Shown in pieces: positions 16,005 through 64,000 of a DNA stretch of 64,000 nucleotides (within the stretch, counting starts at the first letter, position 1; the number at the start of each line of letters is the position of its first letter). Below the pieces are notes generated by a model, which made no database searches, was not told where the DNA came from, and saw only the letters and a program-made list of their open reading frames with translations. Origin of the DNA: Bacilli bacterium (GTDB taxonomy: Bacteria > Bacillota_I > Bacilli_A > RF39 > UBA660); assembly GCA_017409025.1 (NCBI GenBank), contig JAFQTN010000002.1:112185-176184 (forward strand). The letters are read 5' to 3'. The translations under genes were made by a program, and so were the position numbers.

Positions 16005-16801
16005 TTACTAACGCCTCCTTTACTATTAGACAACAACTTCATATCAAGCATCAACCCTTCATTAGCAACAATTGTATTAGAAAATATAGAACAAGCTTCT
16101 TCTAAATATTCAAATTTATTATGTTCCGGCCAAAAATGAGTTAACATAAGTGTATCTACGTTAGCTAAAAGTGCAAGCCTAGCAGCTTCCTTTGCATGCA
16201 AATGATATGGATCATGAACATTATCTTTCTCCAGATAAGTAGATTCAGAAATCAACAACGATGCACAAAATGAAAATGAAATAAATTTATCAATATCGGA
16301 AAAACCCATATCCCCAGTATATACAATAGTATCACCGAAAGAAACTATCTTAGCACTAAAGTTTGCAAGAGAATGTTGAGTTTTCAAAAAATTAATACAT
16401 GTATTTTCATCAACATTTATCTTACTATGTTCATTATATGTAACTATATCGAAATATTGTTCCTTTAAATTTTTAATCATAAGATAATCCTCATATCCAT
16501 CCTCACTAGGCAAAACCTCAGGAATATATACCTTAACTTTTTCATTTAACATGCCTAATCTATGATAGCAAAATGATGCATATCCCAAAGAAAATAAATC
16601 TGCATAATGATCTTTATGTAAATGAGAAATAACAATCGTAAGATTATTTAAGTCTTCCGGCATATTTAATAACGAAGATATGCCAGGACCACAATCTAAT
16701 AAAATTTTGTTAAAACCATTTTCAAATAAATAACCAGGACAATTATTACCATTCTTACAATAAGGAGAAACACTACCTAATACTTTCAATTTACTATTCA
16801 T
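16001..16801 (-). CDS. MBL-fold metallo-hydrolase (RNase Z-like beta-lactamase fold)
   Basis: HxHxDH motif (SHLHKDHYADL) and downstream His/Asp ligands (TQHS, GDMGF, LTHF). 4-nt overlaps with both neighbouring genes. Confidence 0.8.
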   Translation of the reverse strand: MNSKLKVLGSVSPYCKNGNNCPGYLFENGFNKILLDCGPGISSLLNMPEDLNNLTIVISHLHKDHYADLFSLGYASFCYHRLGMLNEKVKVYIPEVLPSEDGYEDYLMIKNLKEQYFDIVTYNEHSKINVDENTCINFLKTQHSLANFSAKIVSFGDTIVYTGDMGFSDIDKFISFSFCASLLISESTYLEKDNVHDPYHLHAKEAARLALLANVDTLMLTHFWPEHNKFEYLEEACSIFSNTIVANEGLMLDMKLLSNSKGGVSK

Positions 16802-33518: not shown

Positions 33519-34397
33519 TTAATCAAATTTTATATTCATTATTTCTAATATTCTATCTAAATCATTATTGTTATTAAAACTAATTTCTATCTTCTTATTT
33601 CCTACTTTTACTTTAGTACCAAATACTTCTTTTAATTCTCTTTCTATATAAGAATATTCGTTTTCTCTACTAACTCTGTTAATAGGATTTTTCTTCTTTA
33701 TATCATTATCCTTAGACATGCTTTCAATATCTCTAACAGATAAATTATTATTAACTATTTCTTTAGCATACTCAACTATCTTATCATTATCTTCTAACTT
33801 ACTAAGTTCTCTAGCATGGCCCATTGATAATTTACCATCTAATATCATATTCTGTACTGAATTAGGAAGTCTAAGTAAACCTAATGTATTAGTAACACTA
33901 CTTCTACTTTTACCTAATTTATTAGCTAACTCATCTTGTGTAATATGTAAACTATCAATAATTCCTTTATATGCCCAAGCAAGTTCTATCGCCGTTAAAT
34001 TTTCTCTTTGCAAGTTTTCAAGTAATGCAATTTCTCTCATCATTTCATCAGAAAAATCTTTAACAATCGCAGGAATAGTTTCAAGACCAGCCAGTCTAGA
34101 TGCTTTAACTCTTCTTTCTCCGGCTACTAAATCATAACCCTTAATACTTTTCTTAACAATTATTGGTTGGAATACTCCATATGATTTAATTGATTCAGCT
34201 AATTCTTCCAACGCTTCTTGATTAAACGTCTTTCTTGGCTGATATGGATTAGATCTAATTTCAGATAAATTGATTTGCTTAATATCATCTACTGAAGCAG
34301 ATTCTAATATATTAGACTCAAATGAATTAAAATCTAATACCTCAGTATCAAATAATTGTTCAAGTCCTCTACCCAACGCTCTCTTCTTTTGTTCCAT
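33519..34397 (-). CDS. parB: Chromosome partitioning protein ParB/Spo0J
   Basis: GRGLEQLF box, PNPYQPR, GERRVKASRLAG (CTPase/arginine patch), HTH GKSRSSVTNTLGLLRL. Confidence 0.95.
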   Translation of the reverse strand: MEQKKRALGRGLEQLFDTEVLDFNSFESNILESASVDDIKQINLSEIRSNPYQPRKTFNQEALEELAESIKSYGVFQPIIVKKSIKGYDLVAGERRVKASRLAGLETIPAIVKDFSDEMMREIALLENLQRENLTAIELAWAYKGIIDSLHITQDELANKLGKSRSSVTNTLGLLRLPNSVQNMILDGKLSMGHARELSKLEDNDKIVEYAKEIVNNNLSVRDIESMSKDNDIKKKNPINRVSRENEYSYIERELKEVFGTKVKVGNKKIEISFNNNNDLDRILEIMNIKFD

Positions 34398-35184
34398 TTC
34401 TCTCTATTACCTCCTTAGCTAAATTAAGATAAGCTCTAGTTCCCTTTCCTTTAGGATCATAATCAAGTATTGTCTTTCCATGACTTGGAGCCTCAGCTAA
34501 CTTAATTAATCTTGGTATAATGGTATCATATACTCTTTCTTTAAAAAATTCTTTTATACTACTAATAACTTCTAAACCCAAATTAGTATTAACACTAAGC
34601 ATAGTAAGAAGTACTCCTTCGATATCTAAATTAGGATTAACTTTTCTTTGAGCCAACATAATAGTATTTATAAGTTGCATAATTCCTTCTAACGCATAAT
34701 ATTCACATTGTACTGGTATTAAAACTGAATTAGCAGCAGCTAATGCATTCGTAGTTAATATACCTAAAGAAGGAGGACAATCTATCAATATAAAATCATA
34801 ATTATCTCTAACTTTACTAAGTTCATCTTTAAGTCTCATAACCCTATTAAATTTCTTATCAGTATCTTTATATTGTTTTTCTAATTCAATAAGTTCCATA
34901 TCAACACCAGCTAAATTTAAATAAGCGGGAATTATACTTAAATTCATACTTTTAGTCTTAATAATAGCATTCTCTATAGGCATCTTCATAGTCATAACCT
35001 CATAAATACTACCATCTATTCCTCTTTTATCTACTCCAACACCAGTAGTAGCATTACCTTGAGGATCTAAATCCACTACTAATACTTTTTTATTTAACAT
35101 CCCTAAAGCTGCAGCAAGATTAATACTCGTAGTAGTCTTTCCTACTCCACCTTTTTGATTAACAATAGCTATTATTTTACCCAC
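34369..35184 (-). CDS. parA: Chromosome partitioning ATPase ParA/Soj
   Basis: Deviant Walker A NQKGGVGKTTT. 29-nt overlap with the parB start. Confidence 0.95.
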   Translation of the reverse strand: MGKIIAIVNQKGGVGKTTTSINLAAALGMLNKKVLVVDLDPQGNATTGVGVDKRGIDGSIYEVMTMKMPIENAIIKTKSMNLSIIPAYLNLAGVDMELIELEKQYKDTDKKFNRVMRLKDELSKVRDNYDFILIDCPPSLGILTTNALAAANSVLIPVQCEYYALEGIMQLINTIMLAQRKVNPNLDIEGVLLTMLSVNTNLGLEVISSIKEFFKERVYDTIIPRLIKLAEAPSHGKTILDYDPKGKGTRAYLNLAKEVIERNGTKEESVG

Positions 35185-35419: not shown

Positions 35420-35677
35420 ATGAGTACAATTAATATTACAAACGCAAGACAAAATTTATTTAAACTAGTTGCTGATGTAAATGTTGGTTTTAATCCTATT
35501 ACAATAGTAAATAACAAGGGCAAAAATGCTGTCTTAATTTCTGAAGAAGAATGGAAAAATATTGAAGAAACTTTATACTTATCTAGTCTTCCAGGATTTG
35601 TTGAAGATATAAATGATATTAGAAAAAATGAAGATTGGAGCAAAGCCAAGGAGTTTAAGCCTGATGAAAAATGGTAA
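35420..35677 (+). CDS. yefM: Phd/YefM-family type II antitoxin
   Basis: INITNARQNLFKLV...ITIVNNKGKNAVLISEEEWKNIEETLYL, the classic YefM pattern. Confidence 0.9.
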   Translation: MSTINITNARQNLFKLVADVNVGFNPITIVNNKGKNAVLISEEEWKNIEETLYLSSLPGFVEDINDIRKNEDWSKAKEFKPDEKW

Positions 35678-35945
35678 AAAATACATAATTAAATTTTCAA
35701 AACAAGCAGAAAAAGATAAAATTAATTTAAAAAATTCCGGTCTAGACAAAAATTGTAAGAAAATACTCATACTGATGACTGATGATCCATTCTGTTATCC
35801 ACCATCATATGAAAAACTAAGTGGCGATTTAAATGGATTATATTCAAGGAGAATAAATAGGCAACATCGTATAGTATATGAAGTAGATGAAAAAAATAAT
35901 GAAATACACATCTTAAGAATGTGGACTCATTACGATAAATTGTAA
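35664..35945 (+). CDS. yoeB: YoeB/Txe-family mRNA interferase toxin
   Basis: C-terminal YSRRINRQHRIVYEVDEKNNEIHILRMWTHY. ATG 35664 overlaps the yefM end by 14 nt. RBS aaggag. Confidence 0.9.
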   Translation: MKNGKKYIIKFSKQAEKDKINLKNSGLDKNCKKILILMTDDPFCYPPSYEKLSGDLNGLYSRRINRQHRIVYEVDEKNNEIHILRMWTHYDKL

Positions 35946-54242: not shown

Positions 54243-55084
54243 TAATTATCACTCCCATGATATTCTTTATATATTTCATTCTTAGGAACTTTTCTCTCTT
54301 TAGCTACTTTTTTTATAGCTTCCATACTAGTTAAGCCAGTACGAATATATCTATTTATAGCTTCATTAACACTAATATCTAAGGTAATATCATCTTCTTC
54401 ACTAGGAGATACGACAATCACAAATTCTCCCTTAAATTCTTTAGTATTCTTAATTGCATCACTAATAAGTCCTACATAAACACTTTCATGAAGTTTAGAA
54501 ATTTCCCGAGATATACTAATATATCTATCACCAAATACCTCTAACATCATATTTAAAGTTTTTAACATTCTATGAGGTGCTTCGTAAAAAACTAAAGTAT
54601 ATTCAGAATCTTTTAAATATTCTAATTCTTGTTTCATCTTACTTTCTTTACTTGACAAAAATCCATAAAATGTAAAATGTTCAGAACTTATTGAAGAAGC
54701 AATTAATGCTGGAACAAACGCACAAGCACCAGGTAATCCAATAACATTATAACCATTATCTTTTAAAAATTTTACCGTTTTATATCCTGGATCACTAATA
54801 ATAGGAGTTCCCCTATCAGTAACGATTGCTACATTCTTACCTTCTTTTAAATAATTCATTACCTTATCTTTAACTATATCTTCATTATGATCATGTAAAG
54901 CAATTAATTTGTTTTTTATTTCAAAATGATTTAATAATTGTAAAGTAACTCTTGTATCCTCCGAAAATATTACATCCACTATTTTCAATATATTTATTGC
55001 CCTAAAAGTCATATCTTCTAAATTACCAATTGGTGTTGGTACTAAATAAACACTAGGACTACCATCATAACTATTCTGCCACAT
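54242..55084 (-). CDS. rsmI: 16S rRNA (cytidine1402-2'-O)-methyltransferase
   Basis: YLVPTPIGNLEDMTFRA, SEDTR, SDPGY. Start uncertain by a few codons. Confidence 0.9.
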   Translation of the reverse strand: MWQNSYDGSPSVYLVPTPIGNLEDMTFRAINILKIVDVIFSEDTRVTLQLLNHFEIKNKLIALHDHNEDIVKDKVMNYLKEGKNVAIVTDRGTPIISDPGYKTVKFLKDNGYNVIGLPGACAFVPALIASSISSEHFTFYGFLSSKESKMKQELEYLKDSEYTLVFYEAPHRMLKTLNMMLEVFGDRYISISREISKLHESVYVGLISDAIKNTKEFKGEFVIVVSPSEEDDITLDISVNEAINRYIRTGLTSMEAIKKVAKERKVPKNEIYKEYHGSDN

Positions 55085-60391: not shown

Positions 60392-60817
60392 CTAATTTCT
60401 TTTATTTTCAAAAAATAATTGAAGCATTTTAAGATATTTTTTTTTAAGTTCTTCATCATCTATTTTAATAGTATCTATATATTCACCAGTTTTAAAACAA
60501 ACATTTGTTCTATCACATAAATAATATACTTTTTCTATTCTACTTTCTAATATAGCACCAGAACACATCATACAAGGAAGTAAAGTAACATACATCTCAC
60601 AACCATCAAGTCTCCAATCACCAACAAAACGGCAAGCTTCTTCAATTGCATTTATTTCAGCATGCCCAATTACACTATTATCATTTTCCCTATTATTAAT
60701 ACCTCTTCCAATTATCTCATTATTTTTAACAACAATTGCACCAACAGGAATCTCATCTTTATTATAAGATTCAACTGCTAAATTGTATATTTCATCAACA
60801 AAATCTTTTTTCATCAC
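60392..60817 (-). CDS. tadA: tRNA-specific adenosine deaminase
   Basis: HAEINAIEEA and PCMMCSGAI CDA zinc motifs. Confidence 0.93.
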   Translation of the reverse strand: MMKKDFVDEIYNLAVESYNKDEIPVGAIVVKNNEIIGRGINNRENDNSVIGHAEINAIEEACRFVGDWRLDGCEMYVTLLPCMMCSGAILESRIEKVYYLCDRTNVCFKTGEYIDTIKIDDEELKKKYLKMLQLFFENKRN

Positions 60818-60933
60818 TAACCACCACTTACATTTATATTATATCAACAATTACATTATTTTTAAAGAAAAAAACATCACAAAAGCATTATCAAATTATT
60901 AATTCCACTTTTTATAAATTACAAGTTAATTTT

Positions 60934-60947
60934 ATTTCCCAGGAAAT
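60934..60947. promoter_or_regulatory. NBS-like palindrome ATTTCCCAGGAAAT (13/14 to the Noc-binding-site consensus ATTTCCCGGGAAAT)
   Basis: Read directly. Embedded in the longer symmetric ttatttcc-ca-ggaaataa. Confidence 0.45.
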
Positions 60948-60989
60948 AATTTAATAAAAAGATAACTGATTTATACATATATATAAAAG

Positions 60990-61048
60990 GGAAATAATCT
61001 GATTTTTACAGTCTGTGCATATTTCTATTACAGATTTTTAATTTCTGT
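60990..61048. repeat. Left arm of inverted repeat bracketing the parS array
   Basis: 59 nt, 57/59 identical to the reverse complement of 62008..62066. Weaker symmetry continues inward to the first and last parS (about 105-115 bp in total). Confidence 0.9.
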
Positions 61049-61074
61049 TAATTTTTATATACATTTTTTTAACA

Positions 61075-61975
61075 TCAATGTTCCACGTGGAACATTGACT
61101 TATAAAACTAATTATCACACTTTTATACTAGTTTTATTTAGATATTTTTATATTAACCATTTATATAAAAATTACACATTAAACTCATAGCTATTTCAAT
61201 GTTCCACGTGGAACATTGAAATGCATAACGAAACATATCACCAAATTTTATTATATTAAATATTGTATATTTTTTATATAGTTACTCTGCTCGTTTATAA
61301 ATTAAAACAAACTCTTATGAATGTTCCACGTGGAACATTCATAAAATCAAGCAACATACGTATTTAAATAATAAATAACGCTGCACAATTGTTACTCATC
61401 AAAACAACATAAATTTATTTGCAATATTCCACATGAAATATTACATTTTTTTATATAATAATTTTTTATACTAAATATAATTGTTACAAAAAAGTCTAGT
61501 ATATTTAACAACTAGAATCTAATAACCACACATCATATATTTTTTATGTTCCACGTGGAACATAAAAAAAGTGCACACAGTAATTAATAGTTAAAGCTGC
61601 TATCTTCCGATCCTGACTTGATTCCTATATTACTGTTGCACAAACAAATTATATAATAATATTAAATTTATTTCAAGTATTTTATTATAAAATACAATAT
61701 ATCTACAATGTTCCACGTGGAACATTGTACTATATAACAAATCACTACATTATTCCACATTGATTATATAATAATATTATTTAATTCAAATCATTTATTA
61801 AAAACATGAATTTTAAATTTACACCTATTCTAATGTTCCACGTGGAACATTAGAATATCACAAAACATTAATCTACAAATTTTATTATATAAAAATATAT
61901 ATTATTATTTTGTAACATATATAATTAACTATAAAAAACAAAGATATACAATTATCAATGTTCCACGTGGAACAT
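61075..61975. repeat. Array of seven identical parS-type palindromes TGTTCCACGTGGAACA within a degenerate ~122-125-bp tandem repeat
   Basis: Cores at 61079, 61200, 61322, 61547, 61709, 61834 and 61959 (16 nt each). Degenerate copy TATTCCACATGAAATA at 61425..61440. Spacers share motifs such as attatataataatatta. Confidence 0.9.
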
Positions 61976-62007
61976 CGTTATAGTTAAAAAAATGTAGTCA
62001 AAAAATT

Positions 62008-62066
62008 ACAGAAATTAAAAATCTGTAATAGAAATATGCACAGACCGTAAAAATTAGATTATTTCC
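62008..62066. repeat. Right arm of inverted repeat bracketing the parS array
   Basis: Reverse complement matches 60990..61048 at 57/59 positions. Confidence 0.9.
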
Positions 62067-62110
62067 TATTTCTACACATACAAAAGAACGAAGATATTTC
62101 TTATAACTTT

Positions 62111-62124
62111 ATTTTCCAGGAAAT
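62111..62124. promoter_or_regulatory. NBS-like palindrome ATTTTCCAGGAAAT (12/14 to NBS consensus) inside 10-bp perfect arms aactttattt/aaataaagtt
   Basis: Read directly at 62105..62130. Confidence 0.35.
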
Positions 62125-62203
62125 AAAGTTAACTTATAGCTAACAATAAACAAAATATTAAGGTATTTATATCGACAGATAAAAAACTGTAATAGATTTT
62201 GTG

Positions 62204-62261
62204 CAGAAATTAAAAATCTGTAACATAGTTATACAGTCACTGCAAAATTCAGATTATTTTC
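62204..62261. repeat. Third, diverged copy of the bracket repeat (same orientation as 62008..62066)
   Basis: cagaaattaaaaatctgtaa...agattattttc aligns with 62009..62066 at roughly three quarters identity. A partial extra copy precedes it at 62176..62203. Confidence 0.6.
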
Positions 62262-62325
62262 TATATCATAATAACAATATTGCTATATCAACAACCAATT
62301 TTATTATTATTACTCTATCCAAATT

Positions 62326-62339
62326 ATTTCCTGGGAAAT
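62326..62339. promoter_or_regulatory. NBS-like palindrome ATTTCCTGGGAAAT (reverse complement of the 60934 site) within the 11-2-11 palindrome aaattatttcc-tg-ggaaataattt
   Basis: Read directly at 62321..62344. Confidence 0.45.
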
Positions 62340-62486
62340 AATTTGGATTTGCTTTAATTTTGTTCTATCAACAGGAAACACAAAAAATATATAAAAATTA
62401 ATAATATTAACTAAATAATTATAACTTAATAAAAAGATTAATTTATAAAATTAAAAATGCTATATCAACAGGTTCTAGAAAAATGT

Positions 62487-62514: not shown

Positions 62515-64000
62515 TTCTTCATTTTTTTCTACATTATCTGCTGTTATTTCACCATCACTAGTAGTATTCACATTATTAGATTCATCATTTTCAGTATCTA
62601 CAATAGATATAGAACTTACTTTTTGACCTTCTCTTAAATTAATAAGTTTAACACCTTGAGTAACTCTACTCATTTCAGATATCTTATCAACAGCCAATCT
62701 AATAATTATACCCTCATTTGTAATAATAATTAAATCTTTCGTATTATCTACAGTCTTAAATGATGTAATTGATCCATTCTTATCAGTAATATTTAAAGTT
62801 TTAACACCTTTTCCACCACGATTTGTAATTCTGTATTCTTCAATTGGTGTTTTCTTACCATAACCATTTTCCGTTACAACAAGAACATGTTCACCTTCTT
62901 TAGCTATTTCCATACCAACAAGATTACTATCATCTAAATTAATACCTCTAACACCAGCTGCACCTCTTCCCATAACTCTTACTAATCCTTCTGGGAATCT
63001 AACCATTCTACCATTTGATGCAGCCATTAATATATCAGCCTCACCGTTCGTATTCTTAACAGATATTAATTCATCATCTTCTCTTAAAGTAATAAATTTC
63101 TTACCATTTGCTCTAATATTATAGAATTCAGATACATCAGTTCTCTTAATTAATCCACTTCTTGTTGCAAATACTAAATATTTACTATCTCCATTAGGTG
63201 ATCCATTAAGTAAGGATGTTACACTCTCACCTTGTTCCATATTTAATAAGTTAATAATTGGTAAACCTTTAGATTGTCTACTATATTCAGGGATTTCATA
63301 ACCTTTAACACGATATACTTTTCCTTTATTTGTAAAGAATAATACATAATCATGCGTAGAACAATTTAACATTTGCTCAACAAAATCCTCTTCATTAATA
63401 GACATTCCTTTAATACCAACACCACCTCTATTTTGAGTTTTGTATGTATCAACAGGTAATCTCTTAATATAACCTTTTTTAGTTAAAGTTATAACTATTT
63501 TTTCTTCTGGAATTAAACTTTCGTCTTCTATATAATCAACAGCTGTCATATCAATATGAGTTCTTCTTTCATCACCAAATCTATTTTTTATCTCAGTTAA
63601 TTCTTCTTTAATTATATCTAAAACCATTTGTTCTGAACCTAAAATAGCTTTTAATCTATCTATCTCTATCAACAGGTTCTTCAATTCTTCTTCAATTTTA
63701 TCTCTTTCTAATCCAGTTAAACGACGTAATTTAAGTTCTAATATAGCATCAGTTTGAACTTCAGTTAAATTAAATCTGCTCATTAATTTTTCTTTAGCCT
63801 CAATATCAGTCTTAGCAGTCTTAATTATTTGAATAACTTCATCTATATTATCTTGGGCTATCTTATAACCTTCTAAAATATGTACTCTACGTTCATTTTT
63901 TTCTAAATCAAATCTAGTTCTTCTAATAATAACTTCTTTTTGATGATCAATATACTTAGAAATAATATCTTTAAGTGGTAAAGTCTTAGGTGTCATACCA
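62500..64000 (-). CDS. gyrA: DNA gyrase subunit A, C-terminal part (5' end beyond window)
   Basis: Tower/coiled-coil and beta-pinwheel CTD repeats (GGKGV, RGAAGVRGI, QNRGGVGIKG GyrA-box-like). Frame open to nt 64000. Acidic tail. Confidence 0.95.
   Translation of the reverse strand, partial: GMTPKTLPLKDIISKYIDHQKEVIIRRTRFDLEKNERRVHILEGYKIAQDNIDEVIQIIKTAKTDIEAKEKLMSRFNLTEVQTDAILELKLRRLTGLERDKIEEELKNLLIEIDRLKAILGSEQMVLDIIKEELTEIKNRFGDERRTHIDMTAVDYIEDESLIPEEKIVITLTKKGYIKRLPVDTYKTQNRGGVGIKGMSINEEDFVEQMLNCSTHDYVLFFTNKGKVYRVKGYEIPEYSRQSKGLPIINLLNMEQGESVTSLLNGSPNGDSKYLVFATRSGLIKRTDVSEFYNIRANGKKFITLREDDELISVKNTNGEADILMAASNGRMVRFPEGLVRVMGRGAAGVRGINLDDSNLVGMEIAKEGEHVLVVTENGYGKKTPIEEYRITNRGGKGVKTLNITDKNGSITSFKTVDNTKDLIIITNEGIIIRLAVDKISEMSRVTQGVKLINLREGQKVSSISIVDTENDESNNVNTTSDGEITADNVEKNEEKTSE

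Follow-up and report, generated by a model that had tools for sequence, protein, structure and literature searches.

The 64-kb window analysed here (the whole stretch of DNA under study) lies near the replication origin of an uncultured low-GC member of the Bacilli. Within it is a 1.68-kb non-coding gap, hereafter the module, whose neighbours are tadA (60392-60817) and the 3′ end of gyrA (from 62500), both on the minus strand. The module holds an array of parS sites, a gene for the small signal recognition particle (SRP) RNA (ffs), copies of a "bracket" repeat and three palindromes, P1, P2 and P3, that resemble the Noc-binding site (NBS) of Bacillus subtilis. Genes for the partition proteins ParB and ParA/Soj are encoded elsewhere in the window (Table 1). 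Our subject is the three palindromes and the protein that they may bind.

Table 1. Features of the tadA-gyrA module and the partition genes, in window coordinates.
Feature	Coordinates	Strand	Remarks
P1, NBS-type palindrome TATTTCCCAGGAAATA	60933..60948		tadA side; 1 mismatch, at position 7 of one half-site
P2, NBS-type palindrome TATTTTCCAGGAAATA	62110..62125		2 mismatches, at positions 5 and 7
P3, NBS-type palindrome TATTTCCTGGGAAATA	62325..62340		gyrA side; 1 mismatch; 15-bp perfect arms
parS array, seven perfect sites TGTTCCACGTGGAACA	61079..61974		starts at 61079, 61200, 61322, 61547, 61709, 61834, 61959
Degenerate array copy TATTCCACATGAAATA	61425..61440		4 mismatches to parS, 4 to NBS
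Left bracket repeat	60977..61073		half-site GGGAAATAAT at 60989-60998; palindromic core ACAGATTTTTAATTTCTGT at 61030-61048
Right bracket repeat	61983..62079		core ACAGAAATTAAAAATCTGT at 62008-62026; half-site ATTATTTCC at 62058-62066
Second right-hand bracket copy	62177..62267		core at 62203-62221; half-site ATTATTTTC at 62253-62261
Small SRP RNA gene (ffs)	61565..61645	-	Rfam RF00169, 57.3 bits, E = 2e-11; inside the parS array
Three DnaA-box-like motifs	62286..62471	+	TATCAACA at 62286; TATCAACAG at 62366 and 62463; between P3 and the gyrA terminator
ParB, Spo0J-type, specificity residues R-T-R-G	33519..34397	-	expected loader at the parS array
ParA/Soj ATPase, partner of ParB	34369..35184	-	adjacent to parB

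We scanned the window for the 16-bp reference NBS palindrome TATTTCCCGGGAAATA, allowing up to three mismatches. P1, P2 and P3 are the only matches with two mismatches or fewer, and the sole further match, with three, lies at 54500 inside rsmI. Shuffled sequences gave an expectation of 0.41 matches per window at this threshold, and none of 100 shuffles reached the four matches observed. All three palindromes fall within 1.4 kb of one another, inside the tadA-gyrA gap. A previous interpretation based on the letters of the DNA (the sequence-only reading) had picked out three NBS-like palindromes here and had described P1 and P3 as reverse complements of each other. Both observations hold, the second exactly over 21 nt (60932-60952 and 62321-62341), which stands against the 74-88% identity of the repeat units that surround the two sites. 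The same reading had given the palindromes arms of 10-11 bp; their symmetric contexts are real, but the figure is only approximate, as the arms are perfect over 8 bp in P1, imperfect in P2 and 15 bp long in P3. CodY, Rex and other Firmicute operator motifs were considered as alternative identities and rejected, as their half-site spacing does not fit.

Half-sites of parS and NBS differ only at positions 1 and 6, which are G and A in parS and A and C in the NBS. These positions are read by protein residues 173 and 201, which are R and G in ParB and Q and R in Noc, and a basic residue at 179 or 184 is permissive (Jalal 2020, PMC7383237). The NBS-distinguishing bases A1 and C6 are present in six of the six half-sites of P1-P3, and the mismatches affect positions 7 and 5, at which NBS and parS share the same consensus base. 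Because A1 and C6 are kept in every half-site, P1-P3 are, as judged by these bases, NBS-class sites and not weak parS sites. In each of the three, CA or TG has replaced the central CpG (position 7), and P2 is altered at position 5 as well. The strand changed at the centre differs between P2 (CCAGG orientation) and P3 (CCTGG orientation), and both keep 14-15 of the 16 NBS positions in AT-rich non-coding DNA. Restriction avoidance was considered as a cause of the lost CpG and rejected: with 30 CCGG observed for ~20 expected, the window shows no avoidance of it, and CCCGGG is too rare to judge.

The ParB encoded in the window carries R-T-R-G at the four specificity positions when aligned to Caulobacter ParB, and R[T/V/I]RG is found in 120 of 120 ParB homologues of the genus. 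Its best solved-structure match is Spo0J (208 bits, compared with 146 for Noc), and it scores 231 on the NCBIfam Noc model TIGR04285, which has a cutoff of 315. By these sequence measures the window ParB is a parS-type protein, and its earlier description as Spo0J-like rather than Noc-like stands. All the constituents of a ParB/parS centromere are found: parS sites of consensus sequence in the neighbourhood of oriC as placed by the gene order of relatives, a ParB that carries R173 and G201, and Soj encoded next to it. A YoeB toxin gene (35613-35945, plus strand) adjoins the soj-parB operon, and on a related contig, L001 (2988-3513), a YefM-type antitoxin gene has been called beside it.

The parS sites recur at a pitch of 121-125 bp, with exceptions around the degenerate copy at 61425 and at one wider gap that holds ffs; the irregular 225- and 162-bp spacings arise because this gene sits inside the array. 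It has a near-consensus promoter (TTGAAA-17-TATAAT, 61676-61648), and the parS palindrome at 61547 begins 3 bp past its 3′ U-run. The arrays of the relatives L106, L114, L032 and L132, described below, also have ffs inside or beside them. Most parS copies lie within longer perfect palindromes of ~18-24 bp (at 61075-61098, 61196-61219, 61705-61728 and elsewhere), of which TCAATGTTCCACGTGGAACATTGA is one example; their extensions past the 16-bp consensus vary from copy to copy. The degenerate copy TATTCCACATGAAATA had been taken for an intermediate between the two motifs. It is indeed equidistant from them, but because its four changes from parS are all transitions, it is most simply read as a decayed parS. 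Hybrid degenerate copies recur, with an NBS-like A1 and a parS-like A6 both in this copy and in TGTTTCATGTGAAATA of L132 (~16789).

The left and right brackets are 97-nt inverted repeats, 88% complementary. Each bracket ends in an NBS half-site (GGGAAATAAT, ATTATTTCC or ATTATTTTC), as had been recognized from the sequence, and is followed by a diverged spacer and then by one full palindrome. The second right-hand copy together with P3 forms a tandem duplicate of this bracket-plus-NBS unit, of which the module holds three copies. The bracket-core palindrome ACAGAAATTAAAAATCTGT is kept at the array ends in the window genus, with L132 copies at 16535 and 17889; it was rejected as a clade-wide element, being present only in that genus. 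The parS-type and NBS-type palindromes had been described as interleaved. In the window the NBS-type sites instead flank the array, whereas true interleaving occurs in relatives.

To survey these relatives, we searched one genome per species for the 18-mer TTATTTCCCAGGAAATAA, the CCCAGG form of the site, a query that contains neither parS nor a perfect NBS. The search returned at least 120 loci. Among the matches listed, 45 are low-GC loci from uncultured Bacilli, 'Tenericutes' and Erysipelotrich-labelled gut genomes; a perfect NBS occurs in 22 of them, a parS-like site in 27 and an NBS within 200 bp of parS in 22. The corresponding counts for the 75 higher-GC loci among the matches listed are 0, 4 and 2. 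Thirty-six of the 45 listed low-GC loci match the window by blastn. One of these, L113, does so only through a ParB/Noc cross-match, and most of the remainder have the order gyrA, parS with or without NBS, ffs in some cases, tadA and dnaX. Counting only those listed low-GC loci in which parS is present, a parS is no more than 200 bp away for 46 of 74 NBS-like sites and no more than 50 bp away for 16. NBS-like sites also recur in the relatives at a second place ~1.7 kb off, after dnaX. The exact B. subtilis 16-mer occurs many times in these genomes, with a chance expectation of ~2e-10 per position estimated from composition. The sequence-only reading had anticipated a motif scattered along the chromosome arms, as in B. 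subtilis; this was not what we found, the sites being concentrated beside the origin in the clade loci that were fetched.

The pairing takes several forms. L114 has, beside ffs and tadA, 4-5 tandem copies of a 115-bp unit that holds a single perfect NBS and a single parS, and in L032 NBS and parS alternate over ~900 bp. L106, the closest species representative among the matches listed (gyrA ~80% identical), has NBS sites 29-30 bp from its first and last parS. Within the window genus, L132 interleaves three perfect NBS and one single-mismatch NBS with eight parS-like sites, and L136-L139 have nine perfect parS and, towards gyrA, a single CCCAGG site. The CCCAGG form is also seen within arrays whose other sites are perfect, as in L114 and L032. 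In some relatives NBS and parS are only 17-45 bp apart and are nonetheless kept distinct in sequence. The sequence (A/T)TTAACTTATAG(C/T)TAAC, an imperfect palindrome, adjoins P2 (62127-62146) and both NBS sites of L106 (2679-2694 and 3124-3141).

When the window contig, L132 and L136 are aligned over the portion of the module nearest gyrA, conserved islands emerge: the NBS core, the gyrA terminator, a pair of CCTGTTGATA motifs and the bracket palindrome, the last conserved mainly between L136 and L132. The NBS core TATTTCCC[A/G]GGAAATAA is invariant except at its central base, whereas the surrounding AT-rich intergenic DNA barely aligns. Only this 16-18-bp core is conserved across species; the long arms are not. 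At the site orthologous to P3, L136 has CCCAGG and L132 has CCCGGG. Because relatives pair perfect NBS with parS at this locus and the NBS core outlasts the divergence of its flanks, chance or an unrelated regulator appears an unlikely explanation for P1-P3. The comparison also speaks for a CCCAGG variant that is tolerated and not dead, because L136 shares it yet keeps a perfect NBS in oriC and because the central CG-to-CA/TG change leaves the specificity-determining bases intact.

A second ParB-family gene lies directly after mnmG-rsmG, the canonical position of noc, in four other genera of the clade (L113, L127, L142 and L144), which are ~65-70% identical to the window genus at the nucleotide level. 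The specificity residues of this paralogue are Q-K-N-R in 97 of 120 homologues and QKSR or QKTR in five more; Noc itself is typified by Q173, K179, K184 and R201, with 179 or 184, or both, basic. The paralogue has Q173, K179 and R201, its GERR and ENxQR motifs are intact and its C-terminal domain is Noc-like; the register of the specificity residues was confirmed by alignment to the Noc structure 7ng0, and its best solved-structure match is Noc (216 bits, compared with 169 for Spo0J). The Noc-like clusters P0229, P0174 and P0183 all belong to genera other than that of the window, with ~65-67% nucleotide identity to it, and the gene order of the window genus agrees with that of the paralogue-bearing genera as far as mnmG. 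The linker of the paralogue is long, acidic and of low complexity and carries a recurrent aromatic motif (IDFNTFF, IDFDYLF, FNPF; seen in P0229, P0192, P0163, P0151 and L113). This motif could be a partner- or membrane-binding element.

The position of the module relative to the origin can be judged from L132, which is ~85% identical in the comK-like gene, recF, gyrB and gyrA and has the order mnmG, mnmE, jag, yidC, rnpA, rpmH, DUF87, dnaA, dnaN, comK, recF, gyrB, gyrA, module, tadA, dnaX. On this map the module would lie roughly 10 kb from oriC. The scaffold ENA ERZ28653922 scaffold_72, 100% identical to the window, starts at a point 4.9 kb right of it and reads comK-like, recF, gyrB, gyrA. 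The source contig ends just before comK, short of the expected noc-like locus, and many assemblies break just upstream of comK in the same way. The window genus has a ComK-like gene between dnaN and recF (L124, 158-607) and a DUF87 (HerA-like ATPase) gene between rpmH and dnaA (L132, 4329-6089).

Copies of the motif TATCAACA(G) are in excess near the gyrA side of the module, where P3 sits between two DnaA-box-like motifs. A fourth such motif lies at 60842 near tadA, and others occur inside gyrA at 62685, 63447 and 63667. TATCAACAG is present seven times in the window (~0.75 expected, a composition-based estimate), with five of the seven copies within 1.3 kb. In the genus relatives L132, L136 and L141, clusters of these motifs are found upstream of dnaA (6183-6413 in L132, 6450-6713 in L136) and also between dnaA and dnaN, and the canonical TTATCCACA is absent from L132 and L136. 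The motif TATCAACA(G) is probably the local DnaA box, in which case the centromere would have a cluster of DnaA boxes next to it. L136 (6426-6441) and L141 (5826) each have a perfect NBS at the margin of their oriC cluster upstream of dnaA, a region beyond the end of the window contig; the equivalent site of L132, at 6133, has two mismatches. The oriC NBS of L136 is preceded by the half-site GGGAAATAAT, as in the left bracket repeat of the window.

Our favoured reading, which we consider somewhat more probable than its rivals taken together, is that P1-P3 are NBS-type nucleation sites for a Noc-family cytidine triphosphate (CTP)-dependent DNA clamp, set within a composite ParB/Noc centromere-like module. 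The genome would encode the same rsmG-adjacent Noc-type paralogue as its relatives. ParB would be loaded from the parS array in the centre, and the Noc-like clamp from the NBS sites on either side of it; both clamps would close on CTP and slide over the 1-2 kb island and the neighbouring DNA, so that each replicated origin would carry a mixed or segmented ParB/Noc-like complex. We infer both the binding of a Noc-type clamp to the CCCAGG variants and its function. Because the membrane-tethering helix needed by B. subtilis Noc is absent from the paralogue, we favour for it a role as an organiser of the origin region over that of a classical membrane-bound nucleoid-occlusion factor. It might bound or stabilise the ParB zone, or couple that zone to DnaA and oriC.

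Several observations weigh against this proposal. The paralogue scores 288-296 on TIGR04285, well above the 231 of the window ParB but below the cutoff of 315. Nucleoid occlusion requires a membrane helix, which every Noc homologue examined was found to have (Adams 2015, PMC4331003) and which acts as a CTP-gated membrane anchor (Jalal 2021, PMC8429893). Structure alignment, upstream stop codons and sampled N-termini all indicate that the clade paralogue has no N-terminal amphipathic membrane helix, which, together with the score, makes a Noc-like function uncertain and runs counter to the helix expected by the sequence-only reading. Its start aligns with position 26 of Geobacillus thermoleovorans Noc, leaving ~25 fewer N-terminal residues; in-frame stop codons lie 1-10 codons upstream of the starts; and the sampled proteins begin ~10-20 residues before the conserved IIPNRFQPR motif. 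The aromatic linker motif could be a replacement for the lost helix. Neither the window nor the 4.9 kb to its right contains a second ParB-family gene, and in genus relatives the fetched sequence breaks off within mnmG, ~2 kb before the place where the noc-like gene is expected. The window also lacks the extra NBS positions of relatives, after dnaX and near rsmI/pth, and the loss of the central CpG in all three sites, with the second change in P2, may reflect decay. The earlier suggestion that a Noc-like paralogue encoded elsewhere cooperates with the ParB zone accordingly has strong comparative support, in the paired sites and in the QKNR paralogue of four genera, and lacks the paralogue of this genome itself within the window and the adjoining 4.9 kb.

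Some of these points could be explained if the lineage has lost, or is losing, its Noc-like protein, and the palindromes are decaying remnants that were copied with the bracket repeat and are no longer bound. Such an origin fits the CpG-to-CpA/TpG transition at the centre of all three sites and the further change in P2, in a window where CpG is depleted (observed/expected 0.54), as well as the more numerous and perfect sites of relatives and the failure to find a noc-like gene in the window or the 4.9 kb beyond it; the central change shared by P1 and P3 is explicable by duplication of the bracket unit. We nevertheless consider it unlikely. CCCAGG is kept at the orthologous position in L136, whose flanking genes are ~86% identical and whose intergenic DNA can no longer be aligned, and L136 retains a perfect NBS in oriC, so that the reader protein is presumably present there. 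Moreover, P2 and P3 were changed on different strands and both still retain nearly all NBS positions, and the same variant stands within the otherwise perfect arrays of L114 and L032.

Binding by ParB itself would dispense with a second protein altogether: an R-T-R-G ParB might bind NBS-type sites weakly beside parS, making the palindromes low-affinity outposts of a single ParB system. A Caulobacter ParB variant with RTKG (PtoN3), carrying K184, was 'promiscuous' on several parS/NBS hybrid sites in vitro (PMC7383237), and position 184 is R in 120 of 120 ParB homologues of the genus. However, R173 with G201 is the parS-specific signature, in which position 184 tolerates any residue (PMC7383237); R173 reads G1, yet every half-site in P1-P3 has A1. 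The clade also has a dedicated QKNR paralogue, and a single protein would not require perfect NBS to be kept distinct from parS at 17-45 bp. We therefore regard this account as improbable. More improbable still is that P1-P3 merely resemble NBS and represent the site of another transcription factor, or a terminator or insulator around the array. P3, with its 15-bp arms and a T-rich tail 3′ of them, was flagged as terminator-like on the plus strand, and the module has other conserved palindromes, such as the bracket core. But conservation between species is confined to the 16-18-bp core and does not extend to the long arms, no plus-strand gene upstream of P3 needs termination, and the many exact B. 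subtilis 16-mers in relatives would be hard to reconcile with a chance resemblance.

Beyond the favoured reading of P1-P3, we tentatively propose, as a possibility that falls somewhat short of probable, a two-clamp centromere in uncultured low-GC gut Bacilli. ParB and a helix-less Noc-derived paralogue would load side by side from alternating parS and NBS sites beside oriC, in some cases inside a single tandem repeat unit, and the Noc lineage would be integral to a partition or origin-organising complex rather than a chromosome-wide, membrane-tethered inhibitor of division. The window would represent a member in which NBS sites with a tolerated CCCAGG centre cap the parS array. ParB and Noc are a textbook case of a duplicated DNA-binding protein whose copies split both sites and jobs, one serving origin segregation and the other division control along the chromosome arms. 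Here the two types of site are distinct in sequence yet physically paired, and the Noc-type protein is without the helix that defines its known mechanism. If correct, the proposal would provide a natural system for studying the sharing or division of one DNA segment between two CTP-gated sliding clamps, the task of a Noc-family protein that does not bind the membrane, and the coupling of the centromere to DnaA boxes and oriC in Firmicutes with small genomes. The proposal would be of clear interest to the ParB/CTP-switch field, and parS/NBS arrays between gyrA, ffs and tadA would offer a signature for annotation.

The ParB/parS and Noc/NBS components are themselves of known kinds. What appear to be new are the physical pairing of parS and NBS, up to strict alternation in one tandem repeat, the concentration of NBS beside oriC and the helix-less Noc lineage; a full-text literature search of limited scope, which is not proof of absence, returned no description of combined parS/NBS arrays. 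The Noc/NBS nucleoid-occlusion system of B. subtilis was reportedly the subject of work by Wu in 2009. That chromosome has ~70 NBS over most of its length, absent near the terminus and unpaired with parS (PMC4331003; PMC7383237; PMC8429893). The clade resembles it in the 16-bp palindrome TATTTCCCGGGAAATA, exact in relatives and with 1-2 mismatches in the window, and in a paralogue after rsmG with Q173/K179/R201, whose C-terminal domain is Noc-like and which has the CTP-binding motifs GERR and ENxQR. In contrast to B. subtilis, the clade sites are concentrated in the origin-proximal tens of kilobases of the fetched loci, beside or between parS, and the paralogue is without the ~25 N-terminal residues that include the helix, its linker is long and acidic, and its score is slightly below the NCBIfam cutoff.

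The Noc of Staphylococcus aureus retains the membrane helix. It has been described as a regulator of replication initiation (Pang 2017, PMC5540599), a link between the Noc family and the origin that is paralleled here by the perfect NBS in the oriC DnaA-box cluster of relatives and by the position of P3 between DnaA-box-like motifs. The clade differs in its arrays, as the title and abstract of the same report describe no NBS/parS array.

In chromosomal ParABS centromeres, parS sites near oriC load ParB-CTP clamps and recruit SMC, and the sites are usually dispersed and often lie within genes. The module is alike in its consensus parS sites, its Spo0J-type ParB with adjacent Soj and its distance of ~10 kb from oriC, as estimated from L132. 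It differs in that seven to nine perfect parS sites are collected at ~122-bp pitch in one non-coding island and in that the array also incorporates a second palindrome family, which would serve a paralogous clamp; in some relatives the two families share one tandem unit. The sopC site of plasmid F consists of 12 tandem 43-bp units. Like arrays of this type, the module is a regular tandem series of short inverted repeats that forms one compact partition site; unlike them, it is chromosomal, uses canonical parS, has a repeat of ~115-125 bp and combines two binding motifs.

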